Below are positions 12,637 through 28,712 of a DNA stretch of 32,000 nt, one piece after another. Position 1 is the stretch's first letter, and every line of letters begins with the position of its first letter. The notes below the pieces were generated by a model. It worked only from the letters and a program-made list of their open reading frames with translations. It had not been told where the DNA came from and made no database searches. A program made the translations under genes and the position numbers. Origin of the DNA: Candidatus Saccharimonadota bacterium (GTDB lineage: Bacteria; Patescibacteriota; Gracilibacteria; UBA4473); contig OZ245819.1 of NCBI GenBank assembly GCA_965228485.1, forward strand, positions 270,001-302,000. The letters run 5' to 3'.

Positions 12637-15600
12637 CTAAAGCCCACCTGAATATCTATTTCGCAAAAACTGTTCAATAGATGATGGATCTTTGAATATC
12701 TTTTCCCCAATATCTCCACTCACCATACTATCAATCGTTTTATTCAAAAACTTATATTCTTCAGTTTGTTCCACTTGGGCGAAATTTTCACTCACAGATA
12801 CTACTAAGTTTGATTGAAATACATCTACCGTCTCACCTGAACTTGTAGTATGTTGATAGGCATCAGGGCTTAATCCAGCCTGCCCCACTAAAGTCCTTAC
12901 CATATCTCCAATTTCTTTTTTATTTGAGGCTACATCTCCAGTATCTCCTTCCCAGTAACGCGCTTTATCTAGGTAAGATGGCGTTTGATTTTTCTGCATT
13001 TTGTAATTCCCCGACAAAGAACTAATCCCACCAAAAGCAACCCGAATTCTCTCACCAATTTCAATAAGCGCTTTTTTTCTCATTCTTTGCCATTCTGGAG
13101 TAGAACCGTACATTTTATCATATTCTAAAATATACTTATAACGTCCTTTGACATAGGGCTCTAGCCCTTGAAAGAGTTGTGCAAGTTGATCTTGAGATTT
13201 TGCAATGTCACGCCCTTCTGAACGGGTATTCACAAGCTTCGCCATCTCAATATAACTAATCCCACAGAACTGCATCCACGCATCATCATGATCCCCTTCT
13301 TTATCTCCCACAGAAGCCATCCGACTTGCCCGGGTTACGGCCATATCAGAGCTCATAATATATTCGAAGAAAAACCGATCAGAATTCTCCCGTATTTTAC
13401 TCTCATTACTTTCAATAGGACCTGATAACCCCTGCATCAAAAAGGCTTTCCAGTTCTGAATATCCTGGTAATTCCAGGTACGTTGTTCCGCTCCTGGAGT
13501 ATTTGGAGGGACTATTTTCCCATCTTTTTTCCAACCTCCATCTGAAAAAAAATCAAAGAAAGGAATTCTCGCTAATAGTCCACTATTAAATCTCGTCATC
13601 ATTTCTTGGGAAATAAGCGTTTTCCCTTGAGGATTGGTCGCCGCCATTCCCATAATGAGAAAAAACCATCTTCGATCTTGAGGTCCATTGAAACGAGCAT
13701 CGTCAAAGAGTTTAAACATGAAATGTTCATATGCTGCTGGATCAACCGTATCATCTCCGCTCATCCAAGATTCTAACATTCCTCCTAATGTAGACATAAT
13801 TCTTGCAGGATTCTGACGCATATTCTGGAAATCTTTTTCATTTGATTCCATTTGTTTTTTAAGATTTCCTTCTAGAGAACCATTCCAGTTATTCCAAATA
13901 GCGGTCGTCCAAATTTCAGAACAAGCCAGTCCAACTTTATTAATCTGATCACCAATCGGAAGATTTAGATCATTCTCTAGATCAAAAACAACCTTCTTCT
14001 GGAACTTCATCAAAACTTTCCAAAATTCTGGATCGTTCCAGCGCATATAACCATTGTTTACCAGTAGGTTAATCATGGCTCGAGCCTGATCTTTATTCTT
14101 AGTTTTGTAGAGCACCTCCCTCCAGTTATAGAAATCTTTATTTTCTTCTCGTTTTTCATCTTCAGAAACCCTCTGCTCTTCTGCTTCCCGTTGCTTCCTC
14201 TGAAACTCTTGTCCATAAGCAGAATTTCCAAATATTTTTGTTCCTAAAAATGCAACCGCCTCTTCCTCTCGACGCTGTCTTAAGCGTTCAAGGTTCTCAA
14301 CATGCTGCTTAATCATTCTTCCAATATCTAACAATGAATACCATTGTTTTACATAAATTCGAGGAAGATATCGCCAAGGCTTATCCCATCCTTTTCTATT
14401 TTTATCGTAGTCTTTGTAATCTGATAAAAATTTCTTAAATGATTCTGTATCTTTTTTTAAATGTTCTCCTACTCCATCTTTTACCACAAACATTTTTCTC
14501 ATGTCATCTACGGCTTCAGATTGAGTTTCAGGCTTTTCATACCGCTTAAACCACTCCTGAAAAGCAAAGGGTGAAGCTAGCATTTTTTGATAAAATGGTT
14601 CAAAAGTTTCTATATCTAGTTCTACCTCTTCTATATCTTTTTTAATGTCAGATTTTTCAACTCCATAAACCTGTCTAAATTTCTCAGCAGGCATTTTTTC
14701 TAAATCGTTTTTTGTTTTTCCAAGATAGGCTCTAGACTTTTCTAAATATTCTTCAAATATAGCTTTATATTCTTGTTGTATTTCACTGTAATGTTTTTCA
14801 GCCTTATCCTTTCCACCTTCTTCAAACAGCCCCAGTTCATCGGCCATAAATTCATAGGTCGAGGTAATTTGATCCAATGAGTCAAAAGAATCTTTTTGAA
14901 CGGGAACCCATTCTCCTGAATTTAAATCCAGACTGGATTCAACCCCTCTAAAAAGTTTAAGAATATATTCAAAATCATCTCCTGTCGGGTTGAATTTATC
15001 ACTATATTCTAACTTTTGTTTATAGTTGTCTCTCAAGGCTATAAAGTTTGTTTCTAATGCTTTGTAGGTTTCATCAAATCGAGCTAAATATTTTTTCGTA
15101 AAACTTTCTGTAAACTCAGGAAACAAAGCCAACAGTGTTGACTCTAATTCTGACCTAATAAGTTTGAGTCTTGGAAAAATAGAATTCTCCACATCAGAAA
15201 AATACAAACGATTAAGTTGTGAAAAATCTAATTTATCTCCATTGTTTAGACGAGAAGCAATAGCCAATGTTCTATCATTTAAATGCTTATTGAGAAGTTT
15301 TACCTCGTTAACAATTGGCATGACTTCCAAGCCTATTTGATTTAAGGATTTAAGCCCTATCTGGTTTTCACTCCCTTCAAAAACATCAAAAGACTTACTA
15401 GAAACAACACCTTTAGCTTCTATTCCTGCATAATAACGCAGAATTTTTTCAGCAATATTTTTCTCTGCCTGAAGCTTTTGATCTTCAGTAAAGCTTGATA
15501 ATAAAGATGCATCAATACTATCAAGGACTTTCCCATTACCTTTTATTAAAGCTATCTGTTCTTCTCTTGAAGCATATCGATTAATCAGAGTATTAATCTG

Positions 15601-18060
15601 GTCAGTTGTTATTCCTGGGATTTCTTTTTCAATTTCCTGAGACAATTCTTCATGACCTCCTACTCTTAAAGTCTCTAATATTTTTGCATTCTGTTCTCCT
15701 TCTTTTTTTAAATATTTCTCCCTTTTTTCTACATATTTTTTCTGTTCTTCGGCGTTCCAAGCCTGAATATCTTGGTCATAAATTTTATTGTGTACTCTAT
15801 CGTAACTCGAGACAAAACTACTCAGTATTTTTGCTTCATTTGGAGTCCCAAGGCCCATCCCGAGAACCGCACTCACTTGCTGTAATGTCTCTTTTTCTCT
15901 CACTTCAGCCGGATCAATCTGTCGAACTTTTTCAAAAATTTCATGACGAAAAGACTCAATCACTCCATACACCACTTCACTTAGAGCTAACTCAGAATCA
16001 GATAAAACCCCCCTTAGGGCTCTTATATCTGCTGGAGATTTTGCGTAAACATTTCTTAAACTCAAACCTTCATCAAAAGCTTGTTGCCAATTTTCAAAAC
16101 TAGATTTTCCATCAATAATGGCATCCAGTTCATCTAATACTGGTTCTAAAACGGTGCTTTTTAGGCCTTCTCTGAATGTTTTAATTTTTTGTAGTAACTG
16201 GGCTTCCCTTCCTTCGAATATTTTTTCTTCATTAGTATTATCTTCCTCAACAAGCAAAGTATAAATATCTGCACTGGTTAATCTTTTTTGTTTCACTCTT
16301 TCGGCCAAATCTTCTCGGTAAGACTGATACATCTCCGAAGCTTTTGTTGGAGCTTTGTAAATAAATTCAGCTAGTTCCACATGTGATCGTGCTTCAGACT
16401 CATTATTCTGAAGCTTCGGTATTAACTTCGCTATTTCCCCCTCTACTTCATCTTGCTTCGCCTTAAGCTCTCCTATTGGATTTGTTTTAAGTTCTGCAAT
16501 TTCAGCTAAAACGTTCTGTGCTTGAGTCCCACGAGCCTCTCTAGCTTGTTTTTGATCAGGAGTTTCTCCTTGTGGAACTTGATTGGATTCCAATAAGACA
16601 TCGGTTAAAGGCGCTTCAATCTCCTCGTATAATGTCTCGAGAAATTCACCTCGAACATCTCCAAAAGAAGGATCTTCTTCAATAACAATATTACTTTTAA
16701 GATTATTCCATTTCGAAGCCAATTCAGCATTTTCTGAAAGTAATTTCGAAAAATGCTGTTTTGCCCCAAACGCTTCGACTGTTTTCTTAAGAGCTTCAAC
16801 AAGTTTTTTATCATTAATACTTTCTCTAAGCTTTCGAACCTTCTCGCTCATAGAAACTGATTCAGGGTTTTTGTCATCTCCTTCCTGCATCATTACATCA
16901 CCATTTTCGGCTTCCCATTGTCCCAAAAATTCATCTAACAAGTCTCCTTTCTGAGGTTTTGAAGCAATAGCTTGTAATTCAGATAACTCATCGGCTGAAA
17001 GTCGCTGACCTTCTCTTTGTTTTTGCTCTAAATCCAATAGTCTCGCTTCTTCTTGTTTTGTCCTACCTGAATCCACCCCAACTCCCAGTAACTGTTGGTA
17101 GTTGTCTTGATTTTGTGATTTAATAATCCGAAGAGCGGTAATATGTTCTGGTAGTAGAACTTTTTTACCATCTGCCCACTTTAGAAACTCAGCCGCTTGA
17201 GTTTGCTCTACCAGAGCCTCAATTTTAGGTTTCACCGACTGAAGGTCATAATCAGGATTATCAACAAGGCATTCCAATAATTCCCAGGCTCGAAGATATT
17301 CAATTCGGTTTTTAAACGTTGCTTCTCCAGTAAGTTCATTTTTAATTTCTGAAACCACCGCCTGACCAAAATTAGCAAATTTACCTGTTTCTGAGTCCGT
17401 TTCAAAATGGACATCTCCACCAAAAACTCTTTGGGCCTCGAGAACAAATAGCTTATCTCTTAACTGAAATTTTTTGTTTGGATCTTTACAGACTAAATGT
17501 CCAGCCTCATTCACTCGATAACCAGACAAAATATCTCTCGTCTTATCCAAAAGCTTCGCTCTCACAGAGGCTCGTAAGTCAGCATCAATATCTTTGTTGT
17601 TCCACACAGAACGATAAAACCGAAGCATCGATTGTAAGTTTGCAAAAGATATTTGCTCTACGCCTTCTACTTTTTCTGAGATTTTTTTTAACTCATCCTG
17701 TTCTTTTGATATTCCCATATCTACCCTTCGTCTCAAATCTGGGCTGATAAATTTCCAAAGCTTAGAAAACTTTAGATTGAAAAGCACCCTGTTTGGGAAA
17801 GTTCTATCTCTTTTCTCCATCACAAGACTTAAGTGAAATTCTACCAAGTCATTTAATTTTCTTTTTTGTTCAGCGGTTAAAGAATCTTTTACTGACTCCA
17901 GTTTCTTAAGCCCTGCTAATGATAGGTTATGAGGGCTCTTGAGTATTTGTTCAATTTGAGCCTCTATCCCCTGCTCGCCTTCGGTTCTTTCTTCACGATT
18001 ATTAAAACACCAGTTTTTCTGGTCTGTGAAGGTGTTAGAAGACGAAAATAAATATTTCAT
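12637..18060 (-). CDS. Giant hypothetical protein (1807 aa), predominantly helical and E/K/Q-rich, with no signal peptide or TM segment
   Basis: A single uninterrupted 5.4-kb ORF. I recognise no catalytic or nucleotide-binding motif. The last 600 aa or so are Trp/Phe-rich and less repetitive, for example WNDPEFWKVLMKF and RRWFFLIMGMAATNPQGK. Confidence 0.85.
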   Translation of the reverse strand: MKYLFSSSNTFTDQKNWCFNNREERTEGEQGIEAQIEQILKSPHNLSLAGLKKLESVKDSLTAEQKRKLNDLVEFHLSLVMEKRDRTFPNRVLFNLKFSKLWKFISPDLRRRVDMGISKEQDELKKISEKVEGVEQISFANLQSMLRFYRSVWNNKDIDADLRASVRAKLLDKTRDILSGYRVNEAGHLVCKDPNKKFQLRDKLFVLEAQRVFGGDVHFETDSETGKFANFGQAVVSEIKNELTGEATFKNRIEYLRAWELLECLVDNPDYDLQSVKPKIEALVEQTQAAEFLKWADGKKVLLPEHITALRIIKSQNQDNYQQLLGVGVDSGRTKQEEARLLDLEQKQREGQRLSADELSELQAIASKPQKGDLLDEFLGQWEAENGDVMMQEGDDKNPESVSMSEKVRKLRESINDKKLVEALKKTVEAFGAKQHFSKLLSENAELASKWNNLKSNIVIEEDPSFGDVRGEFLETLYEEIEAPLTDVLLESNQVPQGETPDQKQAREARGTQAQNVLAEIAELKTNPIGELKAKQDEVEGEIAKLIPKLQNNESEARSHVELAEFIYKAPTKASEMYQSYREDLAERVKQKRLTSADIYTLLVEEDNTNEEKIFEGREAQLLQKIKTFREGLKSTVLEPVLDELDAIIDGKSSFENWQQAFDEGLSLRNVYAKSPADIRALRGVLSDSELALSEVVYGVIESFRHEIFEKVRQIDPAEVREKETLQQVSAVLGMGLGTPNEAKILSSFVSSYDRVHNKIYDQDIQAWNAEEQKKYVEKREKYLKKEGEQNAKILETLRVGGHEELSQEIEKEIPGITTDQINTLINRYASREEQIALIKGNGKVLDSIDASLLSSFTEDQKLQAEKNIAEKILRYYAGIEAKGVVSSKSFDVFEGSENQIGLKSLNQIGLEVMPIVNEVKLLNKHLNDRTLAIASRLNNGDKLDFSQLNRLYFSDVENSIFPRLKLIRSELESTLLALFPEFTESFTKKYLARFDETYKALETNFIALRDNYKQKLEYSDKFNPTGDDFEYILKLFRGVESSLDLNSGEWVPVQKDSFDSLDQITSTYEFMADELGLFEEGGKDKAEKHYSEIQQEYKAIFEEYLEKSRAYLGKTKNDLEKMPAEKFRQVYGVEKSDIKKDIEEVELDIETFEPFYQKMLASPFAFQEWFKRYEKPETQSEAVDDMRKMFVVKDGVGEHLKKDTESFKKFLSDYKDYDKNRKGWDKPWRYLPRIYVKQWYSLLDIGRMIKQHVENLERLRQRREEEAVAFLGTKIFGNSAYGQEFQRKQREAEEQRVSEDEKREENKDFYNWREVLYKTKNKDQARAMINLLVNNGYMRWNDPEFWKVLMKFQKKVVFDLENDLNLPIGDQINKVGLACSEIWTTAIWNNWNGSLEGNLKKQMESNEKDFQNMRQNPARIMSTLGGMLESWMSGDDTVDPAAYEHFMFKLFDDARFNGPQDRRWFFLIMGMAATNPQGKTLISQEMMTRFNSGLLARIPFFDFFSDGGWKKDGKIVPPNTPGAEQRTWNYQDIQNWKAFLMQGLSGPIESNESKIRENSDRFFFEYIMSSDMAVTRASRMASVGDKEGDHDDAWMQFCGISYIEMAKLVNTRSEGRDIAKSQDQLAQLFQGLEPYVKGRYKYILEYDKMYGSTPEWQRMRKKALIEIGERIRVAFGGISSLSGNYKMQKNQTPSYLDKARYWEGDTGDVASNKKEIGDMVRTLVGQAGLSPDAYQHTTSSGETVDVFQSNLVVSVSENFAQVEQTEEYKFLNKTIDSMVSGDIGEKIFKDPSSIEQFLRNRYSGGL

Positions 18061-18084
18061 TTCTGACGTAAAAATAGTCTGAAT

Positions 18085-18093
18085 ATTATAACA
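18085..18093 (-). promoter_or_regulatory. Extended -10 element TGTTATAAT upstream of the 1807-aa gene
   Basis: The minus strand reads AAAATGTTATAATATTC, placing TATAAT 24 nt upstream of ATG 18060. The element lies downstream of the 18147-18179 terminator, so the giant gene appears to have its own promoter. Confidence 0.5.
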
Positions 18094-18146
18094 TTTTTAT
18101 TCGTCAAACACGACTAAATACTCTTTACAAAAATGTATTAATATGT

Positions 18147-18179
18147 TGTAAAAAAACAGCCTTATAAAAGGCTGTTTTT
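18147..18179 (-). terminator. Rho-independent, bidirectional-looking terminator after the 648-aa gene
   Basis: An 8-bp stem pairs ACAGCCTT (18154-18161) with AAGGCTGT (18166-18173) around a 4-nt loop. A 7-nt A-run sits on one side and a T-run on the other, giving a U-tract in either orientation. Confidence 0.75.
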
Positions 18180-18204
18180 TATCTTTAAGATCAAGGTTCA
18201 ATAA

Positions 18205-20151
18205 CTAAGAAGGTTTTCTAACGATCTTAATAGTACCATCCTCTTGTGTTTCAATTGTGAAGGTAGTTTCCGACTCAATCCTAGTTCTAATTTCTCTTAA
18301 TTTATCTCCAGACAAGTCTCCAAAGTCTTTTTCAGATGTTACTCCAAAATCTGCTGGATTTATAACCTGTCCCTCTGTGAGGCCTGTTGCTATGGCCCCT
18401 GCAAGTTTGCTTTCATCGAAAGTAACTGTTGTAGGTCCACTTCTATCTGGATCAGGAGTCCCACTCGTATCTGCTGCGAATATTTTAGCAGCATTAGCAG
18501 CATTCCCGAGATCTCCAGCACTAGAAATCCCCAGTGCAGTTCTATCTCCTTCGGATAAATGACTAAATACTTGTGTCTGAAGTTGTGTATTACTGGCTAG
18601 AATAGACTGTGTAACACCATTGGCTGCTAAGATAGACTTAATTTCTTGAAGCGTAGCTCGATTTCTTCCAAATTGAGTAGCCAATTTATTTCTCGCTTTA
18701 TCAGCTTTAGCTGTATCTTGTGCTCCTCCCGTGAAGGATTCCCTTAAGCCAGTTGGCCCACTATCGGACCTCATTCTATTTCTTGCACTAGCCATACCTT
18801 GATTGATATTTCCAACGTTAGCTAGTGTTCCCATTCCAGGAATTTTAATCTGATCTGCCCCCCAAGTCATAGCCGTTTTAGCCATCCCAGATCCGAAGTT
18901 CTGGATTCCTTGAACCACTCCTTGTACGTCTTCGATATCTTTAAGTGCTAGGAATACAGCTTTCCAGAAGAGAACGACAATAAATATTTTCCAAACAAAC
19001 TGCCATCCTTTGAATTTCTCATCTCCCCAGAAAGGTTTTAATGGTGCCCCTGGTTCAATATATTCTGTATAGAATTGAGGGGCTGGCACCACCGCATCTA
19101 AAGTTGCAATCAACACAAAGGTAAAGGCAAATACAGCCGCTACTTTCATCGGTACAATCAAATAATTCCAGAAACGTCCATTAATCTGTTGGAACGCATC
19201 TCCACTCCACCCCAGTACCCAACCGGTAACCAGAATCGGAGATAAGAGTATCATTACCCACATCATTACCACTCGGACAATAAGTACCACGAAGACGGCC
19301 ACAAGGGCCAATATATAGGCCACTGCCATAACGAAAGAGAAAAGAGCATTGTCTAAGACAGCCCAAATACTTTTGGAATTCGCCGCTAAAATTGGAAGCG
19401 ACTCAAGTCTCATAAAATGAACTCCAAAAGCCAGAATAATATTTTTCTTTTCTGGATCTTGTAGTTGATCTACTTCGATTTTATCTTTTACCTTGAAGAG
19501 ACAATAATCCTTATTTGGATCCTTACTTTTACAAAAGGTATCATTAATAATATCCCTTACTGGCGTACATGGTTTACCCGCACTTTGATCTTTACAAACA
19601 GTGTATTTCTTCGTATCAACTTTTAGATCCATCATCTCTTGGACATCCTTTGTTCCCTTTGCATCAATAGCCGTATCGGCAATAGTCAAGAGACCAATCG
19701 TTCCAACGTAAGTAGCATCTACCAGAACTTTCACTGCTAGAAGTGAAAAATTCACGGCTACTAGCCCAAGAATAATCTTCCCAAGCTTCGCTTTAATTGA
19801 CCAGTTTGAAGATTCTCCTGAAGTCAGAAGATTAATCATGATTACCGCCAAAAGAACAATCACAAAGACCATGTTCATGATATTTCGAATAAACATCCAC
19901 ATTGGTTTTAATGCGGCAATAATATCTGGGCCTGTAATCAAATCAGTCCCCCATAAAGGTGGCATGAATTGTAGCAAAATCAATGTTGCCGCCGTTAGAA
20001 TATGAACTAACGCGGACATTGTTTGAGCAAAATTCTCTAGAGCCGGAGATCGTGCTGCATTCGTTGCAAAAGCCATTTCCGGCATAAAAAATGTTGCTAC
20101 TAGAAAGGCAAAGGCCACAAGTGGAAGTGATTTTGTAAAAAATCGTTTCAT
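18205..20151 (-). CDS. Polytopic membrane protein with signal peptide, a Cys-containing external loop and a long soluble C-terminal tail; VirB6/TrbL-like by topology only
   Basis: 648 aa with signal peptide MKRFFTKSLPLVAFAFLVATFFMPEMAFA. There are at least six long hydrophobic helices. A 4-Cys loop reads VCKDQSAGKPCTPVRDIINDTFCKSKDPNKDYC. The C-terminal tail of about 230 aa is hydrophilic. The functional label is inferred from architecture and from linkage to a VirB4-like gene. Confidence 0.45.
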   Translation of the reverse strand: MKRFFTKSLPLVAFAFLVATFFMPEMAFATNAARSPALENFAQTMSALVHILTAATLILLQFMPPLWGTDLITGPDIIAALKPMWMFIRNIMNMVFVIVLLAVIMINLLTSGESSNWSIKAKLGKIILGLVAVNFSLLAVKVLVDATYVGTIGLLTIADTAIDAKGTKDVQEMMDLKVDTKKYTVCKDQSAGKPCTPVRDIINDTFCKSKDPNKDYCLFKVKDKIEVDQLQDPEKKNIILAFGVHFMRLESLPILAANSKSIWAVLDNALFSFVMAVAYILALVAVFVVLIVRVVMMWVMILLSPILVTGWVLGWSGDAFQQINGRFWNYLIVPMKVAAVFAFTFVLIATLDAVVPAPQFYTEYIEPGAPLKPFWGDEKFKGWQFVWKIFIVVLFWKAVFLALKDIEDVQGVVQGIQNFGSGMAKTAMTWGADQIKIPGMGTLANVGNINQGMASARNRMRSDSGPTGLRESFTGGAQDTAKADKARNKLATQFGRNRATLQEIKSILAANGVTQSILASNTQLQTQVFSHLSEGDRTALGISSAGDLGNAANAAKIFAADTSGTPDPDRSGPTTVTFDESKLAGAIATGLTEGQVINPADFGVTSEKDFGDLSGDKLREIRTRIESETTFTIETQEDGTIKIVRKPS

Positions 20152-20175
20152 GAATTAATTCGAATAAATCCCTCC

Positions 20176-20184
20176 ATTATACCA
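20176..20184 (-). promoter_or_regulatory. Extended -10 element TGGTATAAT upstream of the 648-aa gene
   Basis: The minus strand reads TTTTCTGGTATAATGGAGGG, about 25 nt upstream of ATG 20151. Confidence 0.4.
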
Positions 20185-20251
20185 GAAAATCACTAAAAAA
20201 ACAACGATAAAATATTAATTTAGTCGCTATAAAATCTCCTTAAATACGAAA

Positions 20252-22459
20252 TTAAGTGGTCACACTAAATCTATCGGCTGGTAAAACTCTAAAATTCCCT
20301 GTATTTCCAACATCAAACTCAAATCTATCATCTCTAAATCGAATTTTTAAAGTCGTTGATTCCCCTCCTGGCGTGTCTTCTGTAGCATTTCTGATAGTTA
20401 ATCCACGAGAAAGCTCGCTTGTAATTTTCCTATAAGGATAAGTAGCTCCAGCACCAATAATTCTTTGAATTCTATCAAAAAAGCTCCCAGTCCGTTCAAA
20501 ATTATAGCTTTTCCCATCTAAGTTAATTTTTATTTTTCCTTTATTCCCGACTTTAGAGGCAAATTCTCGGAGCTTTCTAAACTCGTAGAAAATTTTATGA
20601 AAGCTATCAACATTATTAATGATATTTGAATCAATACCAGAGGCTCTAAGTCCCTGTAAAAAAGAATTTCTAAGCGTTAATCTAGATTTTTGATTCGTAA
20701 CATCGTTGGCAAAAGCCCTGAAATTATCGTTCCCCTGAATTGAAATTCCTGCCCCAATAATAGCCGCTTTAAGAGCTTCGTTAGGCATGATTACTCCATA
20801 CTTCACTAATTCATCGTAAGTTGATTCGGCATCTTTCTTAATAGCACTATCAATATCACGATAAGGTTTTTTTCCTGAAAATAGGGTCTTCAGATTTTCA
20901 TCATCACGATTTTTCATCATATCACCTGGAGTGGTCTCTGTTTTATCTCTATTCGGAAATAACGCCCCTTTAACCATATTAAACTCTAAATCTAACATGC
21001 TCATAAACGCCCAAACCGCCACAATCGATCCTGAAAAACCAAGATCTCCAATAACCTCAAATACGTCATTATAGCTAAATTCTCCTCGAAGCTGCCCCCC
21101 TAAACGTTGATTTAGCTTCGCAAAACGAGGATCGTTTTTTACGTCCACTAATTGTGCCTGGCTAATATCTTGTGGATGGAAAGCCTGGTTGAGGTCCTCT
21201 ATAGAATTTAATTGTCCAGATTTAATCTTTTGTTTTGCCAGCTCCAGCTGATTGGCAAGATTCGGCATCACTTGTTTTTGACTGTCAGGCGCTAATTCTA
21301 GATTACTAGACTTACGAATCATTGATACATACATCCCTATAAGATATTTTTGTTTTTCTTCTGTACTCAGGGTTCCTCCACGGAAACGTTTCACCATTAT
21401 GGCAAAAGATTCTTGTGGATCCACTAAGTTCTCCGTTTGTGCCATAAACTCCGCTGCAGCATTAACTTGATCTTGTGTTGGAGCTGGCGCGTTTTGTCCA
21501 GCTCTAATAGCGAATAGATAATCAATAATCGGACGAATTGCCGCTGGTGCATATCGACTTTCTTGTTTCAAGAGCTCCATAGTTTGATTTGCCATATTTC
21601 GCATTTCTGGATTCAACTTTTGAAACGCCTCAGGATCAAAAGGATAGGCCATAAATTTTGGCATCAAATTAATGTACTCTGAAAAGAGGTTGCTCAAAGC
21701 TTCCGTGTTTCCTTGAAAACCATAATCAATCCCTTTCACTAGCCCTATAGCGGTTGCCGCATTAAATCCTAATACTGATCCAATTCCTCTTCCTGCAACT
21801 CCCACGGTTTCATGTAAAGCTTTTGTGGCATTTGGACTTTGGAGCGCAAAACCAGTTAAAGCTCCCGCCATAATCATTCCTTTACCAAAACCACTTGTAT
21901 CTTTACCAGCATTAAAACCCCACCAAAGAAGTCCTGCTCCCACCGCTGTAGAACCAATAGTAGAAGTAACGTTTAGGTTTGCTAAATCTGCGGGGATATT
22001 AGCCAACTTTCCTCCAATAGAATCTATTCGAGCGCTGGCCATTGTCGCTACATCCGCCCACTGAGAATCGGTCATATGAATATTCTGAGCCGCCAATTTA
22101 GCTCGAACATTTGCCTCTACCTGAGCTTTCACCGAAGTTAAAACGGATGGATTACGTAGTACATAATCCACTCTTTGTTCTTGGGTTAAGTTATTCCATT
22201 TTGGTACAACTTTCGCTAATTCTTTTTCAAGTTCTTCACCAGAAATACTATGGATCATATCAATCTCTAATAACCCTCTTTCTAGAGAGGACTCCACCAG
22301 GGCCACTTCCTCTGCAGGTCTTCTAGCGGCTTCCCTTTGAGCCTCTAACTGAGCTCGAGACTCTTTGGCTTGAGCACGCAAAAGCGCCTCAGAGGGTGCT
22401 CCTCTTGTTATTCCAGGAATTTGATCCCCTCTTGCTAAATCCTGCTCAACTCGTCCCAT
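20252..22459 (-). CDS. Hypothetical 735-aa protein with an Arg/Ala-rich N-terminus and Gly-rich hydrophobic segments
   Basis: Long ORF whose start lies 12 nt after the stop of the upstream 170-aa gene. Residues about 165-250 (TSTIGSTAVGAGLLWWGFNAG...GMIMAGALTGFAL...VGVAGRGIGSVLGFNAATAIGLV) look membrane-inserting. I recognise no family. Confidence 0.7.
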   Translation of the reverse strand: MGRVEQDLARGDQIPGITRGAPSEALLRAQAKESRAQLEAQREAARRPAEEVALVESSLERGLLEIDMIHSISGEELEKELAKVVPKWNNLTQEQRVDYVLRNPSVLTSVKAQVEANVRAKLAAQNIHMTDSQWADVATMASARIDSIGGKLANIPADLANLNVTSTIGSTAVGAGLLWWGFNAGKDTSGFGKGMIMAGALTGFALQSPNATKALHETVGVAGRGIGSVLGFNAATAIGLVKGIDYGFQGNTEALSNLFSEYINLMPKFMAYPFDPEAFQKLNPEMRNMANQTMELLKQESRYAPAAIRPIIDYLFAIRAGQNAPAPTQDQVNAAAEFMAQTENLVDPQESFAIMVKRFRGGTLSTEEKQKYLIGMYVSMIRKSSNLELAPDSQKQVMPNLANQLELAKQKIKSGQLNSIEDLNQAFHPQDISQAQLVDVKNDPRFAKLNQRLGGQLRGEFSYNDVFEVIGDLGFSGSIVAVWAFMSMLDLEFNMVKGALFPNRDKTETTPGDMMKNRDDENLKTLFSGKKPYRDIDSAIKKDAESTYDELVKYGVIMPNEALKAAIIGAGISIQGNDNFRAFANDVTNQKSRLTLRNSFLQGLRASGIDSNIINNVDSFHKIFYEFRKLREFASKVGNKGKIKINLDGKSYNFERTGSFFDRIQRIIGAGATYPYRKITSELSRGLTIRNATEDTPGGESTTLKIRFRDDRFEFDVGNTGNFRVLPADRFSVTT

Positions 22460-22471
22460 GAAAGTGGTTAA

Positions 22472-22984
22472 TTACAATTTCAGAGCTCTAATCCATAGAT
22501 CGGTAAGAGCTTCTTTCTGTGAATTTTTTGGTAACTCTTCAATATTGGCTTTATCCAAAACTTTATGAATTTTACTATTAGAAATTTCTTCTAACTGTAA
22601 AATTACTCGATCTGATCGTTTCACAGAATATTCAAAAACCAATAGTCGAGCATGGATATCATCTAGAATCCAATACCCTCGAAATTTATCCCAAGGAAAA
22701 ATATTTCTTTTATCCAAAATGAGTGCATTTTCAAAAATTTCGATCTCGTGCTCTCTCTCTGCATCTCGATGAATCCAGAAATAAACGGCCGCTACAAAAC
22801 AAAAAGTAAAGGCGCTTACCCATCCCCATTCTTTATCCCACCAGAGGAAAAATATCGCACTTCCAAACATTACTCCACAAAACCCGATATGCCAGAGCAG
22901 ACCTCTTTCATGCGGGTGATAGTCTGGCGCACTCCAATTGATAAGTTTTTTTCCAAGCCGAATTTTTGGTTTTTCTTTACCCAT
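22472..22984 (-). CDS. Small membrane protein: two TM helices followed by a beta-rich (PH-like?) C-terminal domain
   Basis: 170 aa. After a basic N-terminus comes W-S-A-P-D-Y...LLWHIGFCGVMFGSAIFFLWW...WVSAFTFCFVAAVYFWI. The PH-like assignment is an inference from this architecture. Confidence 0.65.
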   Translation of the reverse strand: MGKEKPKIRLGKKLINWSAPDYHPHERGLLWHIGFCGVMFGSAIFFLWWDKEWGWVSAFTFCFVAAVYFWIHRDAEREHEIEIFENALILDKRNIFPWDKFRGYWILDDIHARLLVFEYSVKRSDRVILQLEEISNSKIHKVLDKANIEELPKNSQKEALTDLWIRALKL

Positions 22985-23005
22985 GGGGAAAATATTAATC
23001 CCCAG

Positions 23006-23014
23006 ATTATAACA
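23006..23014 (-). promoter_or_regulatory. Extended -10 element TGTTATAAT upstream of the 170-aa/735-aa/648-aa gene set
   Basis: The minus strand reads AGTATGTTATAATCTGG, placing TATAAT 21 nt upstream of ATG 22984. The short leader contains the hairpin GGGGA-N9-TCCCC, which abuts the ATG. Confidence 0.45.
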
Positions 23015-23044
23015 TACTTTTATAAATTTTAAAAGTCAGAAATT

Positions 23045-25669
23045 TTACTGATTTTTCCGAACAAAGATCTTTTGGATTTCGACAACAACCAAAGGAATCA
23101 CACAACTCAAAAGTACCACTCCCCAATCATGTAAATCTAGCGGTGTGGTTTTTAGTATATCATTAAGAAACGGAACGTAGATCATCAAAAGCGTCATCAA
23201 GATTGAGGTCATAACAGCCACAAGCATAAAGTGGTTTTTCAGTGGATTCATCTGAAACACTGATCGAGAGAACGATCGGGCAGAAAAAGCGTTTACTAAT
23301 TGAACCATAACCAGACAAACAAAAGCTACCGTCGTTGCGTGCGCAAACTCTTCATTTGTTGGCATTCCAAAGGCCCAACCATCATTAAATATGGTATAAA
23401 GGAAGGCAATCGTCATCACCACCCCAATAGAACATCCTGTAAATAAAAAGTTCAGCACAAAATGACGATTCATTACCTTTTGTTTCGTATCTCGAGGAGG
23501 CTGTTTCATAAGGTCTCTTGATGGATTATCGACCCCCAATGCAATAGCTGGCAAGATATCGGTTCCCAAATCAATACACAGGATAAGAATCGCCGTTAAT
23601 GGCAATGGGAAATTGAAAAGAATAGCTGCAAAAATTACAAATAACTCTGCAATATTACAAGAGAAGATAAACCACACGAACTTTCTTAGATTTTCATAAA
23701 TCCTTCTCCCCTCTTCCACCGCTGTAACAATAGAGGCAAAAGAGTCATTAAGTAATATCATTGTAGCGGCTTCTTTACTTACTTCCGTTCCGGTAATTCC
23801 CATAGCAACTCCAATATCAGCTTTTTTAAGGGCTGGTGCATCATTAACTCCATCCCCTGTCATCGCCACAATTTCACCTTGTTCTTGAAGAAGGCGAACA
23901 ATTCTCATTTTCTGTTCTGGCAGACTCCGAGCAAAGATCAAAGATCGGTCTCTGTCTGATAACATTCTCCTTAATTCCTCATCTTCAATATTTTTTACCT
24001 CACCTCCAGTAAGGACTTTTACGTTCTTTCCTCTTACAATACCTAGTTCTCGAGCAATCGCTTCTGCTGTGATTCCAAAATCTCCCGTAATTACTACTAC
24101 TCGTATCCCTGCGGTACGACATTTAGCAACCGCTCTTCTTACCTCACTACGAGGTGGATCGATCATTCCTACTAACCCTAAAAATACTAGATTTGATTCT
24201 GCTTCTTCAGCATTTTCGGGTAATTTCCCATCAATAGATCTTTCCGCAAAGGCCAAAACTCTCAAAGCATTCTCAGCCATTCGCTCATAATGGGCTTTGA
24301 TTTTGATTCGCTTAGCCTCTGTCATTTCTTGAACAGAAACTCCATCAGACCAATGTGTACACTGTTCTAGAACTTGGTCAGGAGAACCTTTGACCAATAC
24401 TTTCCCTTGAGAAACTACCGACATCATTTTTCGATCAGAATCGAATGGGAAAATATCATCTACCGTTGCTGGATGAATCCCACTTTTTTCAAGGTCAACA
24501 ATTTTGTCCTTATAATAAAGAGTCAAAAGCGCTCCTTCTGTCGGATCTCCAAGAATCTGAAAACGATTTTCTTTTTCAACAAGCTTCGCCTCATTACACC
24601 GATAACAAACATCTAGTAAAGCATTTTTGAGATCGGTGTTTTCTTTTGTATTTTTTTGTCCTCCCACATAATTAAGTTTTCCTGAGTGAGGTTCGTACCC
24701 TACTCCCGACACATGAAAGATAGAACGATCCGCTAAATAAATCTCACGAACCGTCATTTCATTCTTTGTCAAAGTTCCGGTCTTATCAGAACAAATTGTG
24801 GTTACCGCCCCAAGGGTTTCAACCGATGATAGTTTCTTGATGATCGCCTTTTTTCGAGCCAGTACCGTCGCCCCCAAAGCAAGCGCAATGGTAATGGTCG
24901 TTGGCAAACCTTCTGGGACCGCTGCAATAGCTACCGATACGGAAAAGAGCAAGCTCTGAACAATCGTATAATCTCTAAATAATCCCACTAAAAATAGGAA
25001 GACACAGATGACAATCGTTACTTTCGTTACAAAGACTCCAATACGCTGAAGTTCGATTTGAAGTGGAGATTTCACCTTTACCGTTTCTGTGGTTAGACGA
25101 GCAATCTCACCAAACTTGGTATCCATTCCTGTTTTTATCACCTCAAACATTCCTGATCCTCTCGCAATAGAAGTCCCCATAAATACCACATCTTCTGCTT
25201 TTTTCTCCAGAGGCAGGCTTTCTCCTGTTAGGGCCGATTCTTCGATCTTTAAAGAGTGGGCTTCAACTAGACGCCCGTCAGCTGGCACTTTATCCCCTTC
25301 TCCCAAGACAACAATATCTCCTGGGACAATCGATTCGGTCAAAATCATCTTTTCCTCTCCGTCTCGGAAAACCCGAATTTCTGGATGCACCATCTTTTTT
25401 AGCGCCTCCAATGTCTTCTCTGTTCTAAATTCCTGAAAAAATCCAATCCCCGCATTTAATAATACAATCCCAAAGATCACGTAACTATCAACTGGATCGT
25501 GACTTAAGAAATAGGACACAACAGCCGCTAATACCAAAATTACTACGAGCAAGTCGGTAAATTGTGAAAACAATATTTTATACCAAGGGTTTGATTTTTT
25601 GGCCTTAAGAAGGTTTTTACCAAACTCAGCCAACCTTTTTTCCGCTTCTTTTTGTGAAAGCCCTTTCAT
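23045..25669 (-). CDS. Cation-transporting P-type ATPase, P2 (Ca2+-ATPase-like) subfamily
   Basis: It has the phosphorylation motif ICSDKTGTLT, the TM4 motif AAVPEGLP and the hinge MTGDGVNDAPALKKADIGVAMG. I place the start at Met36 (ATG 25669-25667). MKGLSQKEAEKRLAEFGKNLL is the canonical N-terminus, and the longer 909-aa ORF would run across promoter-like sequence. Confidence 0.9.
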   Translation of the reverse strand: MKGLSQKEAEKRLAEFGKNLLKAKKSNPWYKILFSQFTDLLVVILVLAAVVSYFLSHDPVDSYVIFGIVLLNAGIGFFQEFRTEKTLEALKKMVHPEIRVFRDGEEKMILTESIVPGDIVVLGEGDKVPADGRLVEAHSLKIEESALTGESLPLEKKAEDVVFMGTSIARGSGMFEVIKTGMDTKFGEIARLTTETVKVKSPLQIELQRIGVFVTKVTIVICVFLFLVGLFRDYTIVQSLLFSVSVAIAAVPEGLPTTITIALALGATVLARKKAIIKKLSSVETLGAVTTICSDKTGTLTKNEMTVREIYLADRSIFHVSGVGYEPHSGKLNYVGGQKNTKENTDLKNALLDVCYRCNEAKLVEKENRFQILGDPTEGALLTLYYKDKIVDLEKSGIHPATVDDIFPFDSDRKMMSVVSQGKVLVKGSPDQVLEQCTHWSDGVSVQEMTEAKRIKIKAHYERMAENALRVLAFAERSIDGKLPENAEEAESNLVFLGLVGMIDPPRSEVRRAVAKCRTAGIRVVVITGDFGITAEAIARELGIVRGKNVKVLTGGEVKNIEDEELRRMLSDRDRSLIFARSLPEQKMRIVRLLQEQGEIVAMTGDGVNDAPALKKADIGVAMGITGTEVSKEAATMILLNDSFASIVTAVEEGRRIYENLRKFVWFIFSCNIAELFVIFAAILFNFPLPLTAILILCIDLGTDILPAIALGVDNPSRDLMKQPPRDTKQKVMNRHFVLNFLFTGCSIGVVMTIAFLYTIFNDGWAFGMPTNEEFAHATTVAFVCLVMVQLVNAFSARSFSRSVFQMNPLKNHFMLVAVMTSILMTLLMIYVPFLNDILKTTPLDLHDWGVVLLSCVIPLVVVEIQKIFVRKNQ

Positions 25670-25746
25670 ATTTATATTTATTTTAAGATTCAAAGCGCAT
25701 TCTAGCACAAAGATACAATCAAATTTAAAAAAATGTTTTAAAGTAG

Positions 25747-25775
25747 TTGAAAAAAGATTGAAAATCTGATACAAT
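25747..25775 (+). promoter_or_regulatory. Near-consensus sigma70-type promoter TTGAAA-17 nt-TACAAT facing the 568-bp intergenic region
   Basis: TTGAAA is at 25747-25752 and TACAAT at 25770-25775, with exactly 17 nt between them. The predicted transcription start is near 25781. Confidence 0.45.
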
Positions 25776-25780
25776 GCTCT

Positions 25781-25975
25781 GTTCTTTTTCAGAACGATTC
25801 CTTTTGGGAGGGATCTCGACTTAGCTCCGTTGGCACCTTTATGGACTATGCAACGAGTGTTGCTGAGTCGAGTTCTCTCCTGGCCTTCCTCTCTTCTATA
25901 AAGTTGTACTTTATAAAACTAGAGAGAAGACCCAGAACCAGTCTTGCTTCGGGTTTTACCTCTCGCCTACCCCCA
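25781..25975 (+). ncRNA. Candidate structured non-coding RNA or leader of unknown family
   Basis: Four consecutive hairpins start at the predicted transcription start.
- H0, 25781-25795: 5 bp.
- H1, 25807-25880: about 24 bp (18 bp in 25807-25825/25862-25880, then 6 bp in 25827-25832/25851-25857). The only disruptions are one U-U mismatch, a small internal loop and one bulged A. It contains two G-U pairs (25811-25876 and 25822-25865), which become A-C mismatches on the minus strand and so favour + strand transcription.
- H2, 25885-25929: 7+6+3 bp.
- H3, 25930-25954: 7 bp.
The region has no ORF. I could not match it to tmRNA, RNase P, SRP or a known riboswitch. Confidence 0.35.
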
Positions 25976-26072
25976 AAAAAACAAAAGATAAAAAACAAAT
26001 ATAAATAACAAAGAGCGTGTTATCCGCTCAAGAAAAATCGATAACAGGAAGGATTTAAAAAGGAGAAATTTT

Positions 26073-26129
26073 AAAAAAAACACTGCTCGCCCCTCTGATA
26101 TATCGGGAAAAATGAGCAGTGTTTTTTTT
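26073..26129 (+). terminator. Intrinsic terminator (bidirectional-looking) in the intergenic region upstream of the VirB4-like gene
   Basis: An 8-bp stem pairs CACTGCTC (26081-26088) with GAGCAGTG (26114-26121). An A8 run (26073-26080) and a T8 run (26122-26129) flank it. The 25-nt loop may carry an inner CCC/GGG stem and contains one GATATATC box. Confidence 0.55.
26097..26104. promoter_or_regulatory. Palindromic box GATATATC, copy 1, in C-rich context (CCCCTCT-GATATATC-GGG)
   Basis: Read directly from the sequence. A second copy lies exactly 60 bp downstream. Confidence 0.3.
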
Positions 26130-26156
26130 ACTTTTAGTCGGAATAGTTTCCCCCTA

Positions 26157-26164
26157 GATATATC
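26157..26164. promoter_or_regulatory. Palindromic box GATATATC, copy 2 (CCCCCTA-GATATATC-CCC)
   Basis: Read directly from the sequence; it lies 179 bp upstream of the VirB4-like ATG. Confidence 0.3.
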
Positions 26165-26304
26165 CCCTTAAATTTAGGAATAAAAAATTCTTAGTGAGCC
26201 CAAGAGATCCCAAAAAATTTTATAAAGACTTTGATATGATTTTAAGGACTCTTTTTAATAAAGACTCTAAAAAAACATTTATCAAAAAACTCAAATACTT
26301 CGCA

Positions 26305-26333
26305 TTGAAAAAAACCTCAATTTCAGCTATAAT
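26305..26333 (+). promoter_or_regulatory. Sigma70-type promoter TTGAAA-17 nt-TATAAT immediately upstream of the VirB4-like gene
   Basis: TTGAAA is at 26305-26310 and TATAAT at 26328-26333, with 17 nt between them. The ATG at 26343 is only 9 nt from the -10, so the mRNA would be leaderless or nearly so. The intervening GAAGGGA could instead serve as a ribosome-binding site for a longer transcript. Confidence 0.45.
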
Positions 26334-26342
26334 GAAGGGATT

Positions 26343-28712
26343 ATGTCGGAAAACCAAAACACACAAAACAACCAAAATAGCCAAGCCAGTCAAAATACTG
26401 GGGCTAATAGTGGAAATCAAAGCTTTGTAGATAAACAAGGAATTGTCAGTATTGAAGCACTTCAAGCAATGCAAAAACAGCAACGAGAAGTTGAAACTGA
26501 AGAAACTCCAACTGAGGAAGTAGCACCACAAAACATGCCTCCGAGTACGGAAGCACCAGTAGTGCAAACGCCCACTCCGACGCCTGCACCAACAGCAGCG
26601 CCAACACCACCTCAAACGGTTCCACCGACAACACCAGCCCCTACAGCACCGCCAAGCACGGAAGCGCCAGTAGTACAAACTCCCGCTCCAACGCCTGCGC
26701 CAACAGAAGCACCAAAATCAACTGCAGCTCCTAAACCAGAAACTAAAAACTCTGGTCTTCTTGGAGGCATGAAACAGAAATGGAATGCTCACGTAGAAAA
26801 GAACAAGACCAATGCGGAAAAACGAAAACAACAACAAGTTGAAGCTGCGGCAAAAAAAGTCGATCCTAAAAAGACTGAATCCGAACAATCTCAAGATGAG
26901 TTAGAACAACTTTTTGAAAACTATGATCCGAAAAAAGATCGAAAAAAACTAACTCCAGCCCTTCGAAAGAAAATTATCGAAGCCGAGAAGTTCTACAATG
27001 AAGGAGTTGTAAATATTAAAGACCTTATCGCTCCAAGCTCTCTTGAGGTTGGACCACGAAGCTTAAACGTAAATAGTCAGCATGTACGATCTTACTACGT
27101 GTTTAATTATCCACGTTATTTAGAAAGCAACTGGCTTAATCAAATTATCAATTTTGATGCGACTCTAGATATTTCACTCTTTGTTTATCCAACGGATTCG
27201 GCTCGAATGATGCGTACTTTGAGAAAGAAAGTAACCGAAATGCGAGCCACTCGAAGAATGAAATCTGAGAAAGGAATCACCAATGATGTATCGCTAGATA
27301 CGGCTCTAGAAGATGCCGAACAACTTCGAGTTGATCTTCAAAGAGGGAAAGAAAGATTCTTTCAAGTAGGGGTATACTTCACCGTTTACGCCGACTCACA
27401 AGAAAAACTCGATGTTATCTGCAAACAGGTAGAAACGATTCTTGGAGGACTCCTCGTGATGACTCGTCCAACAGAATTCCAAACCGAACGAGCGTTTAAT
27501 ACGACACTCCCACAATGTACCGATGATTTAGACATTCATAGAAATATGAACACGTCTCCCCTATCGACCACTTTCCCATTTGTTTCAAGTACACTGACTT
27601 CAAATGAAGGAATCTTGTACGGACTTAATCGACATAATAATTCATTGATTATCTTTGATCGATTTAAACTTGAGAATGCCAACTCGGTTATCTTTGCGAA
27701 ATCTGGGGCGGGTAAATCTTATGCCGTAAAACTAGAAGTACTCAGATCAATGATGATTGGAACCGATGTCATCATCCTTGATCCAGAAAAAGAATACGAA
27801 ACACTAACCCATACCATTGGGGGAACGTATGTAAATATTTCGCTGAACTCAAATCACCGAATTAACCCTTTCGACCTTCCACTGCCAATTGATGATGCGG
27901 ATGAAAACACCGCTTCCCTACTCCGGGAAAACATCATCAATATCTCTGGTCTTATGAACCTGATGCTTGGGAAATTGACGCCAGAAGAAAGTAGTCTTAT
28001 GGATAAGGCCCTTTATCAGTGTTATGAAATCAAAGGAATCACCGCTGAGGTAAAAAACCCTCACGAATACGAAATGCCAACGATGAAAGATCTGCAGAGT
28101 ATTCTTGAAAGTATGGAAGGGGGTAAAAGCCTCGCTATGCGTCTAGAAAAATATACCGAAGGAACTTTTGCGGGACTCTTTTCTCAACAGACCAATGTTG
28201 ATCTGAGTTCTGGACTTATCTGTTTTGGTATTCGAGACCTAGAAGATCAACTTCGACCCATTTCAATGTATATTCTTCTGAACTACATCTGGAACCGAGT
28301 TCGAAGCGAAATGAAACGACGAATGCTTGTGATTGATGAGGCCTGGAATGTCGTTCAATACGAAGACTCTGGACGATTCCTACACAATCTTTGTAAACGA
28401 GCGCGGAAATATTATCTTGGTATTTCAACGATTACCCAGGATGTGGAGGACTTCCTCAAATCGCCTTGGGGGAAACCGATTATTACTAATAGTTCGATGC
28501 AGTTGTTGCTCAAACAAGCCCCATCGGCCACGGAAATATTGCAAAACACCTTCAATCTCACCGAACAGGAAAAATACTTACTCCTCAATTCCAATGTGGG
28601 GCAAGGACTCTTCTTTGCGGGGAACCAGCATGTAGCGGTACAGATCATCGCGAGTTACGGAGAACACAAAATCGTAACGACGAATCCAGAGGAAATCCTA
28701 AAACAAGGATAA
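26343..28712 (+). CDS. VirB4/TrsE/TraC-family type IV secretion ATPase with a ~190-aa low-complexity N-terminal extension
   Basis: 789 aa. Walker A is KSGAGKS (nt 27699-27719) and Walker B is MLVIDEAW (nt 28323-28346). The segments ISTITQDVEDF and LLLKQAP follow. The overall layout is a non-ATPase N-domain followed by a C-terminal ATPase, as in VirB4-family proteins. The N-terminus is Q/N-rich, then Pro/Thr-rich, then K/E-rich. Confidence 0.8.
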   Translation: MSENQNTQNNQNSQASQNTGANSGNQSFVDKQGIVSIEALQAMQKQQREVETEETPTEEVAPQNMPPSTEAPVVQTPTPTPAPTAAPTPPQTVPPTTPAPTAPPSTEAPVVQTPAPTPAPTEAPKSTAAPKPETKNSGLLGGMKQKWNAHVEKNKTNAEKRKQQQVEAAAKKVDPKKTESEQSQDELEQLFENYDPKKDRKKLTPALRKKIIEAEKFYNEGVVNIKDLIAPSSLEVGPRSLNVNSQHVRSYYVFNYPRYLESNWLNQIINFDATLDISLFVYPTDSARMMRTLRKKVTEMRATRRMKSEKGITNDVSLDTALEDAEQLRVDLQRGKERFFQVGVYFTVYADSQEKLDVICKQVETILGGLLVMTRPTEFQTERAFNTTLPQCTDDLDIHRNMNTSPLSTTFPFVSSTLTSNEGILYGLNRHNNSLIIFDRFKLENANSVIFAKSGAGKSYAVKLEVLRSMMIGTDVIILDPEKEYETLTHTIGGTYVNISLNSNHRINPFDLPLPIDDADENTASLLRENIINISGLMNLMLGKLTPEESSLMDKALYQCYEIKGITAEVKNPHEYEMPTMKDLQSILESMEGGKSLAMRLEKYTEGTFAGLFSQQTNVDLSSGLICFGIRDLEDQLRPISMYILLNYIWNRVRSEMKRRMLVIDEAWNVVQYEDSGRFLHNLCKRARKYYLGISTITQDVEDFLKSPWGKPIITNSSMQLLLKQAPSATEILQNTFNLTEQEKYLLLNSNVGQGLFFAGNQHVAVQIIASYGEHKIVTTNPEEILKQG
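26538..26714 (+). repeat. Two copies of a 22-codon Pro/Thr-rich unit PPSTEAPVVQTP(T/A)PTPAPT(A/E)AP inside the VirB4-like gene, 111 nt apart
   Basis: Copy 1 is 26538-26603 and copy 2 is 26649-26714. A codon-by-codon comparison shows 9 synonymous and 2 non-synonymous differences. Confidence 0.85.

Follow-up and report, generated by a model that had tools for sequence, protein, structure and literature searches.

We analysed a 32,000-nucleotide stretch of contig OZ245819.1, referred to here as the window, from an ultrasmall bacterium of the class Gracilibacteria, in which a gene for a VirB4-family ATPase of type IV secretion systems (T4SS) and an operon encoding an extended VirB6-like polytopic membrane protein lie on opposite strands. 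The virB4 gene (789 aa) occupies positions 26343-28712 (+), and the operon comprises genes for a 170-aa protein with two transmembrane (TM) segments (22472-22984, -), a fast-evolving 735-aa protein (20252-22459, -), the 648-aa VirB6-like protein (18205-20151, -) and a giant of 1807 aa (12637-18060, -). A preliminary description of this DNA, made from its letters, had reported these five genes, and our listing of open reading frames (ORFs) with translations reproduced all five coordinates as well as the reported gaps of 12 nt between the 170- and 735-aa genes (22460-22471) and 100 nt between the 735- and 648-aa genes (20152-20251); a further 144 nt separate the 648- and 1807-aa genes. The distance of 3.4 kb that it gave between gene set and virB4 also holds, with 3.36 kb from the VirB4 start to that of the 170-aa protein, but not as a gap, since this stretch is filled by a gene for a 909-aa P-type cation ATPase (23045-25774, -; Pfam E1-E2_ATPase, 4e-54). 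The VirB6-like gene lies 6.2 kb from virB4 and is not adjacent to it, with three genes in between including that of the P-type ATPase.

The 789-aa protein matches the NCBIfam model NF045971 (VirB4-like conjugal transfer ATPase, CD1110 family) over residues 161-764 with 397.8 bits, above the curated cut-off of 325 bits, and its top five NCBIfam matches are all VirB4 or TraC models. Pfam P-loop_TraG was matched with 88.3 bits (5.5e-25), and AAA_10 was also matched, as against 33.7 bits for the HerA domain DUF87 and no match to FtsK in either Pfam or NCBIfam. Moreover, the solved VirB4 domain from Thermoanaerobacter (PDB 4ag5) aligned to residues 417-775 at 2.2e-48, and Walker A (AKSGAGKS, residues 452-459) and Walker B (MLVIDE, residues 661-666) are both intact, in agreement with the VirB4-type motifs claimed in the preliminary description. 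Because VirB4 models outscore the FtsK and HerA alternative that it had named as a possible refutation, the call stands and the protein can be taken, on its profile and motif matches, to be a bona fide VirB4 and neither FtsK nor HerA. The VirB4 body spans residues ~213-789 and is preceded by a low-complexity extension, rich in Pro/Thr/Ala and in Lys/Glu, over residues 1 to ~200. These ~200 Pro/Thr/Ala-rich N-terminal codons (26343-26950, +) give rise to a spike in AT skew at 26-27 kb, and the same region yields a spurious 152-aa antisense ORF (26220-26678).

In a species-representative genome set, the relatives of this VirB4 all came from metagenome-assembled genomes (MAGs) of Candidate Phyla Radiation (CPR) bacteria. 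Identity was 66-84% for most matches in MAGs bearing the label Peribacteria, Gracilibacteria or Altimarinota, with two partial ones at 60% and 54%; contigs labelled Saccharibacteria and WWE3, and one unlabelled contig, stood at 49-56%. These relatives mark the source as an organism of the Peregrinibacteria/Peribacteria type, which GTDB places in class Gracilibacteria. The best VirB4s from outside the CPR, found on Priestia and Pontibacillus megaplasmids in a search of 72,556 plasmids, are 37-38% identical to that of the window, the best of 3,087 plasmid records reaching no more than 38%. By identity alone, the window VirB4 thus stands at 49-84% to CPR loci versus at most 38% to VirB4s of non-CPR plasmids.

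The 648-aa protein starts with a signal-like segment ending in AFA, where A29, at a signal-peptidase-like site, is near-invariant in the family, and this is followed by hydropathy peaks at residues 45-63, 91-109, 126-155, 274-292, 337-355 and 385-403. It therefore has at least six strongly hydrophobic helices, where the VirB6 type calls for at least five TM segments. Cysteines 186, 195, 207 and 217 lie in a loop (residues 165-232), with C186 and C207 near-invariant, W85, R89, R293, W298, P305 and P334 are invariant in the family, and the protein ends in a hydrophilic tail of ~240 aa. The signal peptide, at least six TM helices, four-Cys loop and long tail of the preliminary description are all recognizable in these features. 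An AlphaFold2 model from 121 sequences (predicted local distance difference test, pLDDT, 83.3; predicted template modelling score, pTM, 0.67) shows a helical membrane bundle with a small Cys-containing insert and a helical tail. An exact-sequence look-up with this protein and with the VirB4 yielded no recorded contig. A word-indexed search with the 648-aa protein returned five relatives, and an exhaustive profile search returned 14,406 cluster representatives of the family at E<=1e-3, 746 of them at E<=1e-30. A second subfamily of 598-628 aa (L019, L021-L023, L036 and L037; L numbers denote loci of other genomes and contigs) is encoded between rplS and infB, followed by a gene for a 388-415-aa protein and preceded by a divergent one for a 195-aa protein; both were considered as possible relatives of the 170-aa protein or the giant and rejected as unrelated.

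The identity of the 648-aa protein emerged from its distant homologues. In L013, labelled Saccharibacteria, and in the unlabelled L014, a gene cluster starts with a polytopic protein of 818-864 aa, ends with VirB4 and includes PrgI (Pfam PF12666, 8e-8 and 8e-14) as well as a gene for a 213-224-aa protein; in L014, an unannotated 262-aa ORF separates the polytopic gene from PrgI. As the profile of the 213-224-aa protein also matches the N-terminus of a Firmicutes VirB4, we consider it TrsD-like. Comparison by hhalign of the 648-aa family (A3) with the L013/L014 polytopic proteins (A10) gave a probability of 98.7% and an E-value of 3.8e-16 over 267 columns. Since its profile matches the polytopic protein of PrgI/TrsD-like/VirB4 clusters, the 648-aa protein is, at the profile level, a homologue of the VirB6-position component of patescibacterial T4SS, as its provisional description as a VirB6-like polytopic protein had it. 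Direct evidence for membership in canonical VirB6/TrbL/PrgH is weak but consistent. TrbL (PF04610) is the top-ranked Pfam match of the 648-aa protein (E 7.9e-5, 23.0 bits, residues 261-351) and also that of the L013 polytopic protein, at equivalent profile positions; Foldseek with the model gave no significant match but placed R388 TrwI/VirB6 chains at ranks 2, 4 and 31 in the PDB and a protein annotated 'TrbL/VirB6' at rank 5 in BFVD; and an R-x11-P hairpin motif (R293-x11-P305) is common to the 648-aa protein, pCF10 PrgH and three other Firmicutes cluster proteins. A cluster arranged like those of L013 and L014 was also seen on a Pontibacillus megaplasmid (L027; NZ_CP062975.1, 351801-361354), with genes in the order pilin-like, 779-aa membrane protein, PrgI-like, TrsD-like, VirB4 (37% identity, compared with 38% on the Priestia megaplasmid) and large peptidoglycan hydrolase; this replicon has been typed non-mobilizable, and its annotation shows no relaxase in the vicinity.

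The operon is conserved well beyond close relatives. The order of 170-aa homologue, a 530-840-aa gene, VirB6-like gene and giant is kept in all seven lineages in which both flanks are visible, at a depth where VirB6-like proteins are 17-30% identical, confirming that the other three genes travel with the 648-aa gene. We found the operon in the close relative L001 (where only the N-terminal 427 aa of the giant are shown), with partial views in L002 and L004; in two distant genomes (L024 and L026), with VirB6-like proteins ~30% identical to that of the window; and in three metagenome contigs (L029, L030 and L032) recovered with the C-terminal domain of the giant as query, the second position in L032 being taken by two ORFs.

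Hydropathy of the 170-aa protein shows the two TM segments assigned to it previously, as an N-terminal hairpin, followed by a soluble domain of ~100 aa, and homologues occupy the same position in L001, L002, L004, L024, L026, L029, L030 and L032. It matched no Pfam or NCBIfam family. As candidate identities, PrgI/VirB3 was rejected because PF12666 was not matched and hhalign (A4 against A5) gave a probability of 1.8%, and TrsD was likewise rejected by hhalign. The 735-aa protein, described beforehand as Gly-rich and hydrophobic, does have one Gly/Ala-rich stretch (residues ~160-260), but this is only weakly hydrophobic and lies between a charged N-terminal region and a single TM-like segment (~470-495). 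It has no family match in Pfam or NCBIfam, and its only homologues are in L001 (1e-29) and L002 (2e-24). The second-position genes of L024, L026, L029, L030 and L032 bear no detectable similarity to it or to one another, the second gene being orthologous by position but with a sequence no longer recognizable from one lineage to another. Gly-rich segments of weak hydrophobicity and a TM-like helix are retained in most of the copies.

The 1807-aa giant is helical and charged, with neither a TM segment nor a signal peptide, and is conserved in two parts: the first ~100 residues and, towards the C-terminus, a ~470-aa domain (residues ~1230-1700, nt ~12961-14373) with the motif KEGDHDDAW and up to 35% invariant positions among three sequences. 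Word-indexed homology searches with the giant and with the 735-aa protein returned only the proteins themselves, and homologues of both were recovered via neighbouring loci. Those of the giant, directly downstream of the VirB6-like gene in L001, L024, L026, L029, L030 and L032, put its size range at 1,171-2,033 aa. The preliminary description had called the giant an orphan, which it is not, given its fixed place in the operon order. No match to the giant was found in Pfam, NCBIfam or the PDB, nor to its C-terminal domain in Pfam or the PDB, and a single-sequence structure model of that domain reached a pLDDT of 46. It was also considered as an NTPase, which we rejected for lack of conservation of its single P-loop-like GKT (residue 1474).

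Between the VirB6-like gene and the giant, a terminator and a separate promoter had been proposed, and elements of both kinds can be read there. A hairpin, AAAAAACAGCC-TTTTATAA-GGCTGTTTTTTT, with a T-run follows directly on the 648-aa stop (18150-18180, -), and the intergenic region folds with z = -3.8, this terminator-like hairpin being its centroid fold; an extended -10 element, TGtTATAAT (18085-18093, -), identified by consensus match, lies 25 nt upstream of the ATG of the giant. A generic scan listed neither, the hairpin because its G+C-rich stem has only five pairs. With terminator hairpin and extended -10 element between the two genes, expression of the giant may be separately tuned. In L024 (18586-22163, +) and L026 (17973-22391, +), the first giant gene is succeeded by a second giant ORF, its called products having 3,969 and 3,691 aa, for which the window has no counterpart. 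A homologue of the N-terminal region of the giant also occurs in L006 (2-1288, -), a Gracilibacteria-labelled MAG, 8.7 kb from virB4; since a tetratricopeptide repeat (TPR) gene precedes it where a VirB6-like gene would be expected, this MAG may have a disrupted operon or a duplicated giant.

Linkage of VirB4 to the operon is another matter. Co-occurrence of all five genes as a linked set, which the preliminary description had proposed to test, applies to the four-gene operon but for VirB4 does not extend beyond close relatives: VirB4 lies less than 10 kb from the operon only in the window and in L001, L002 and L004. In each of these the two are separated by the P-type ATPase gene, which keeps its position at 72-74% identity in the three relatives. 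Shared descent suffices to explain the synteny, given the close kinship of these four, and we thus infer functional coupling from homology and not from conserved linkage. Secreted proteins with thrombospondin type 3 (TSP3) repeats are encoded near virB4 in several CPR loci (window, 7785-8942, -; L013:11749-12684; L014:2951-3898; L006:13044-14225), the window protein having a weakly LPXTG-anchor-like C-terminus.

The remaining genes of the window are housekeeping genes, among them those for an SNF transporter, an RsmI-like methylase, chorismate mutase, RibB and RibH, V/A-ATPase subunits B and D, a HAD hydrolase, ClpP, the TSP3-repeat surface protein, a GATase and a class-V aminotransferase, and the length of the ORFs read with table 11 points to the standard genetic code. 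Pfam and NCBIfam scans of all ORFs of at least 80 aa not nested in a longer gene found no relaxase, VirD4/coupling protein or integrase in the 32 kb, and G+C is even (~0.35-0.41) save for one kilobase at 0.30 (10-11 kb) outside the five genes. The locus is therefore not a mobile element and, in line with the preliminary description, not a conjugative one. No VirB2-like pilins or hydrolases turned up near virB4 in the Pfam scans, with no search dedicated to them; tRNA and Rfam scans found no such element in the window, and a tandem-repeat scan nothing relevant. Some further observations concern the surroundings. The V/A-type ATPase subunits B and D (4882-6264, -, and 8982-9623, -) have the HAD, ClpP and TSP3-repeat genes between them and no A subunit in view, an unusually fragmented arrangement for such an operon. 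Two paralogous Cys-rich proteins without known family (29945-30571, +, and 30813-31493, +) have a common C-terminal CG(K/N)CPHK...C motif (BLASTP 2e-10 over 58 aa). Gene orientation flips from minus to plus at 25.8-26.3 kb and cumulative GC skew has its minimum near 29-30 kb, which is compatible with an origin-proximal site; there is no dnaA in the window, and the L001 counterpart lies ~90-115 kb from the end of a 1.33-Mb chromosome record.

Taken as a whole, the locus is probably part of a dispersed patescibacterial T4SS that serves interaction with a host and not conjugation, with VirB4 as motor, the 648-aa protein as extended VirB6 translocon, and the 170-aa, hypervariable and giant proteins as accessory parts or cargo. 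The window would then hold two pieces of the chromosomal, non-conjugative T4SS of this lineage, namely the VirB4 motor ATPase, of a Patescibacteria clade nested in monoderm MPF_FATA, and the operon of small 2-TM protein, rapidly evolving membrane-associated protein, extended VirB6 channel subunit and giant soluble protein. The VirB6-like protein would form the membrane translocon and VirB4 would dock on it to energise assembly or transport, while the genes for VirB3/PrgI and a TrsD-like N-domain protein would presumably lie in other parts of the genome. The 170-aa and hypervariable proteins may be accessory or contact components of the envelope, and the giant may be attached to the VirB6 tail as a scaffold in the cytoplasm or else be the cargo that is transported. 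Such an apparatus would serve an epibiotic lifestyle by moving protein or nucleic acid between cell and host rather than by transferring plasmids or integrative and conjugative elements, with the nature and direction of the substrate, like the physical and functional coupling of the two pieces, inferred. A more specific version, which we consider unlikely, would make this a distinct Peregrinibacteria/Gracilibacteria subtype in which an unlinked VirB4 powers a channel of extended VirB6 that handles a single giant protein (1,200-2,000 aa, its conserved C-terminal domain unclassified), with the hypervariable partner as host-contact or specificity element; if true, the machine would deliver or anchor a giant effector and underpin epibiosis.

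Several results weigh against the dispersed T4SS. The 648-aa protein falls short of the Pfam gathering score for TrbL (25.9), only 2 of 63 family members match TrbL at E<0.01, and VirB6 entries in Foldseek have E-values of at least 0.2. Moreover, hhalign against pCF10 PrgH, three PrgH-type proteins and the Pontibacillus 779-aa cluster protein was non-significant (P 0.014-0.058), although the same hairpin was aligned in every such comparison with PrgH-type proteins. PrgI and TrsD models have no match in the window, nor in the Peribacteria-type loci. The 170-aa, hypervariable and giant proteins are characterized by position alone, and co-function of VirB4 with the operon would be deduced from homology to genes that are linked in other classes. 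A rival reading has two unrelated systems, with VirB4 working with T4SS parts elsewhere and the operon encoding a separate envelope complex of CPR bacteria that reuses a VirB6-derived membrane scaffold, perhaps to attach the cell or to anchor or export the giant as a surface protein. In its favour, L024, L026, L030 and L032 have the operon but no VirB4 nearby (none within 10 kb in L024, L026 and L032), and VirB4 is found without the operon in L006, where it lies among ftsX, recO and pur genes, and in L007, L008 and L016; in the window, the P-type ATPase gene and the divergent orientation separate the two; and the VirB6-like family is very large and found in at least two distinct gene contexts, that between rplS and infB without the operon partners of the window. 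Nonetheless, we think this rather doubtful, as distant homologues of the family reside inside bona fide VirB6-like/PrgI/TrsD-like/VirB4 clusters and no VirB6-type protein is known to function in the absence of a VirB4 ATPase. Dispersal is, moreover, normal in Gracilibacteria, where a 2025 survey saw other T4SS parts unlinked from virB4 (PMC12102498).

A machine for DNA uptake of the ComB or Ced kind, in which VirB4 and a VirB6-like channel would supply a cell unable to make nucleotides with DNA or nucleotides of its host, would fit the lack of relaxase and type IV coupling protein in the window and the suggestion, in a PNAS perspective, of T4SS as a route of nucleotide acquisition (PMC11665869). 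VirB4 matches the archaeal importers CedB (2e-10) and CedD (3e-4), but far below cut-off, and the Ced and ComB matches are far weaker than those to conjugative VirB4s; DNA-binding or nuclease domains were detected in none of the operon's proteins. We regard uptake as improbable, and it would in any case be a sub-case of the dispersed T4SS that differs only in transport direction. Hardly credible is an integrated conjugative element that came from Firmicutes and is now in decay, with VirB4 and the VirB6-like protein as functionless relics. A VirB4 of the CD1110/MPF_FATA type, typical of Firmicutes conjugative elements, in a window with no relaxase or coupling protein left is what it would predict, but every ORF is intact and long with catalytic motifs kept, VirB4 is 66-84% identical across most related MAGs, the operon persists at a divergence of 17-30% identity between VirB6-like proteins, G+C is uniform with housekeeping flanks, and the window has no integrase, repeat or tRNA borders.

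The dispersed T4SS that we favour belongs to a kind already known, and so is not of a type yet to be characterized, as the preliminary description had proposed: the system of the window is the published relaxase-less, MPF_FATA-derived chromosomal T4SS of Patescibacteria (PMC10633639, PMC12102498). In Southlakia, a T4SS lacking relaxase and coupling protein is essential (Wang et al. 2023, PMC10633639), its genes in Southlakia epibionticum being SEML1_0006-0019 (PMC10633639, PMC12102498), which makes the patescibacterial T4SS essential for epibiotic growth in the sole species tested. Across 3,035 CPR genomes, VirB4 was found in ~80%, as a monophyletic clade nested in MPF_FATA that is chromosomal and seldom accompanied by a relaxase (Quiñonero-Coronel et al. 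2025, PMC12102498). For class Gracilibacteria, this survey found TrsD and VirB3 away from virB4 and VirB6 homologues 'absent', which the authors ascribed to 'extreme sequence divergence' (PMC12102498). The window resembles these systems in its chromosomal VirB4 of monoderm MPF_FATA lineage without relaxase or linked coupling protein, in a VirB6-like protein homologous to that of the L013/L014 VirB4 clusters, and in the dispersal of parts that the survey had already noted in Gracilibacteria (PMC12102498). It differs in that PrgI, TrsD, a pilin array and a hydrolase are missing next to VirB4 (pilins and hydrolases judged by Pfam scans only), and in that the VirB6-like gene sits in an operon of its own with 2-TM, hypervariable and giant partners, which were not found in the L013 and L014 VirB4 clusters save for a weak 170-aa-like match ~4 kb away in L013.

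More distant systems share less. With Firmicutes MPF_FATA modules (PrgH-PrgI-PrgJ-PrgK-PrgL of pCF10; CD1110/CD1115), the window has in common the VirB4 family and the R-x11-P motif of PrgH-type proteins, but it lacks VirD4, relaxase, PrgI, hydrolase (by Pfam scans only) and PrgL; the VirB6-like protein, with its Cys-rich loop and long tail, is 2.4 times longer than PrgH (648 versus 266 aa), and homology between the two is not statistically demonstrable. It is like the 'extended VirB6' proteins (FEMS review, PMC12857230) in architecture only, with at least five hydrophobic helices and large hydrophilic central and C-terminal domains. Rickettsia T4SS islands, an exception to clustering near virB4 (PMC12102498), likewise have genes scattered on a reduced chromosome, but are of the diderm MPF_T type with a full VirB/VirD4 set, whereas the window system is monoderm-type with few recognizable parts. 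Against this background, two elements appear new. The 648-aa protein, a strong candidate by profile homology for the VirB6 channel subunit that the 2025 survey could not find in Gracilibacteria, defines a VirB6-related family of very large size, with more than 14,000 cluster representatives, that is missed by standard hidden Markov models, and the giant-protein operon adds three unannotated partners, of which we found no description in the patescibacterial T4SS literature examined, as concrete candidates for substrate, scaffold or host-contact parts. The result is an incremental refinement of a known system and not a new kind of machine.

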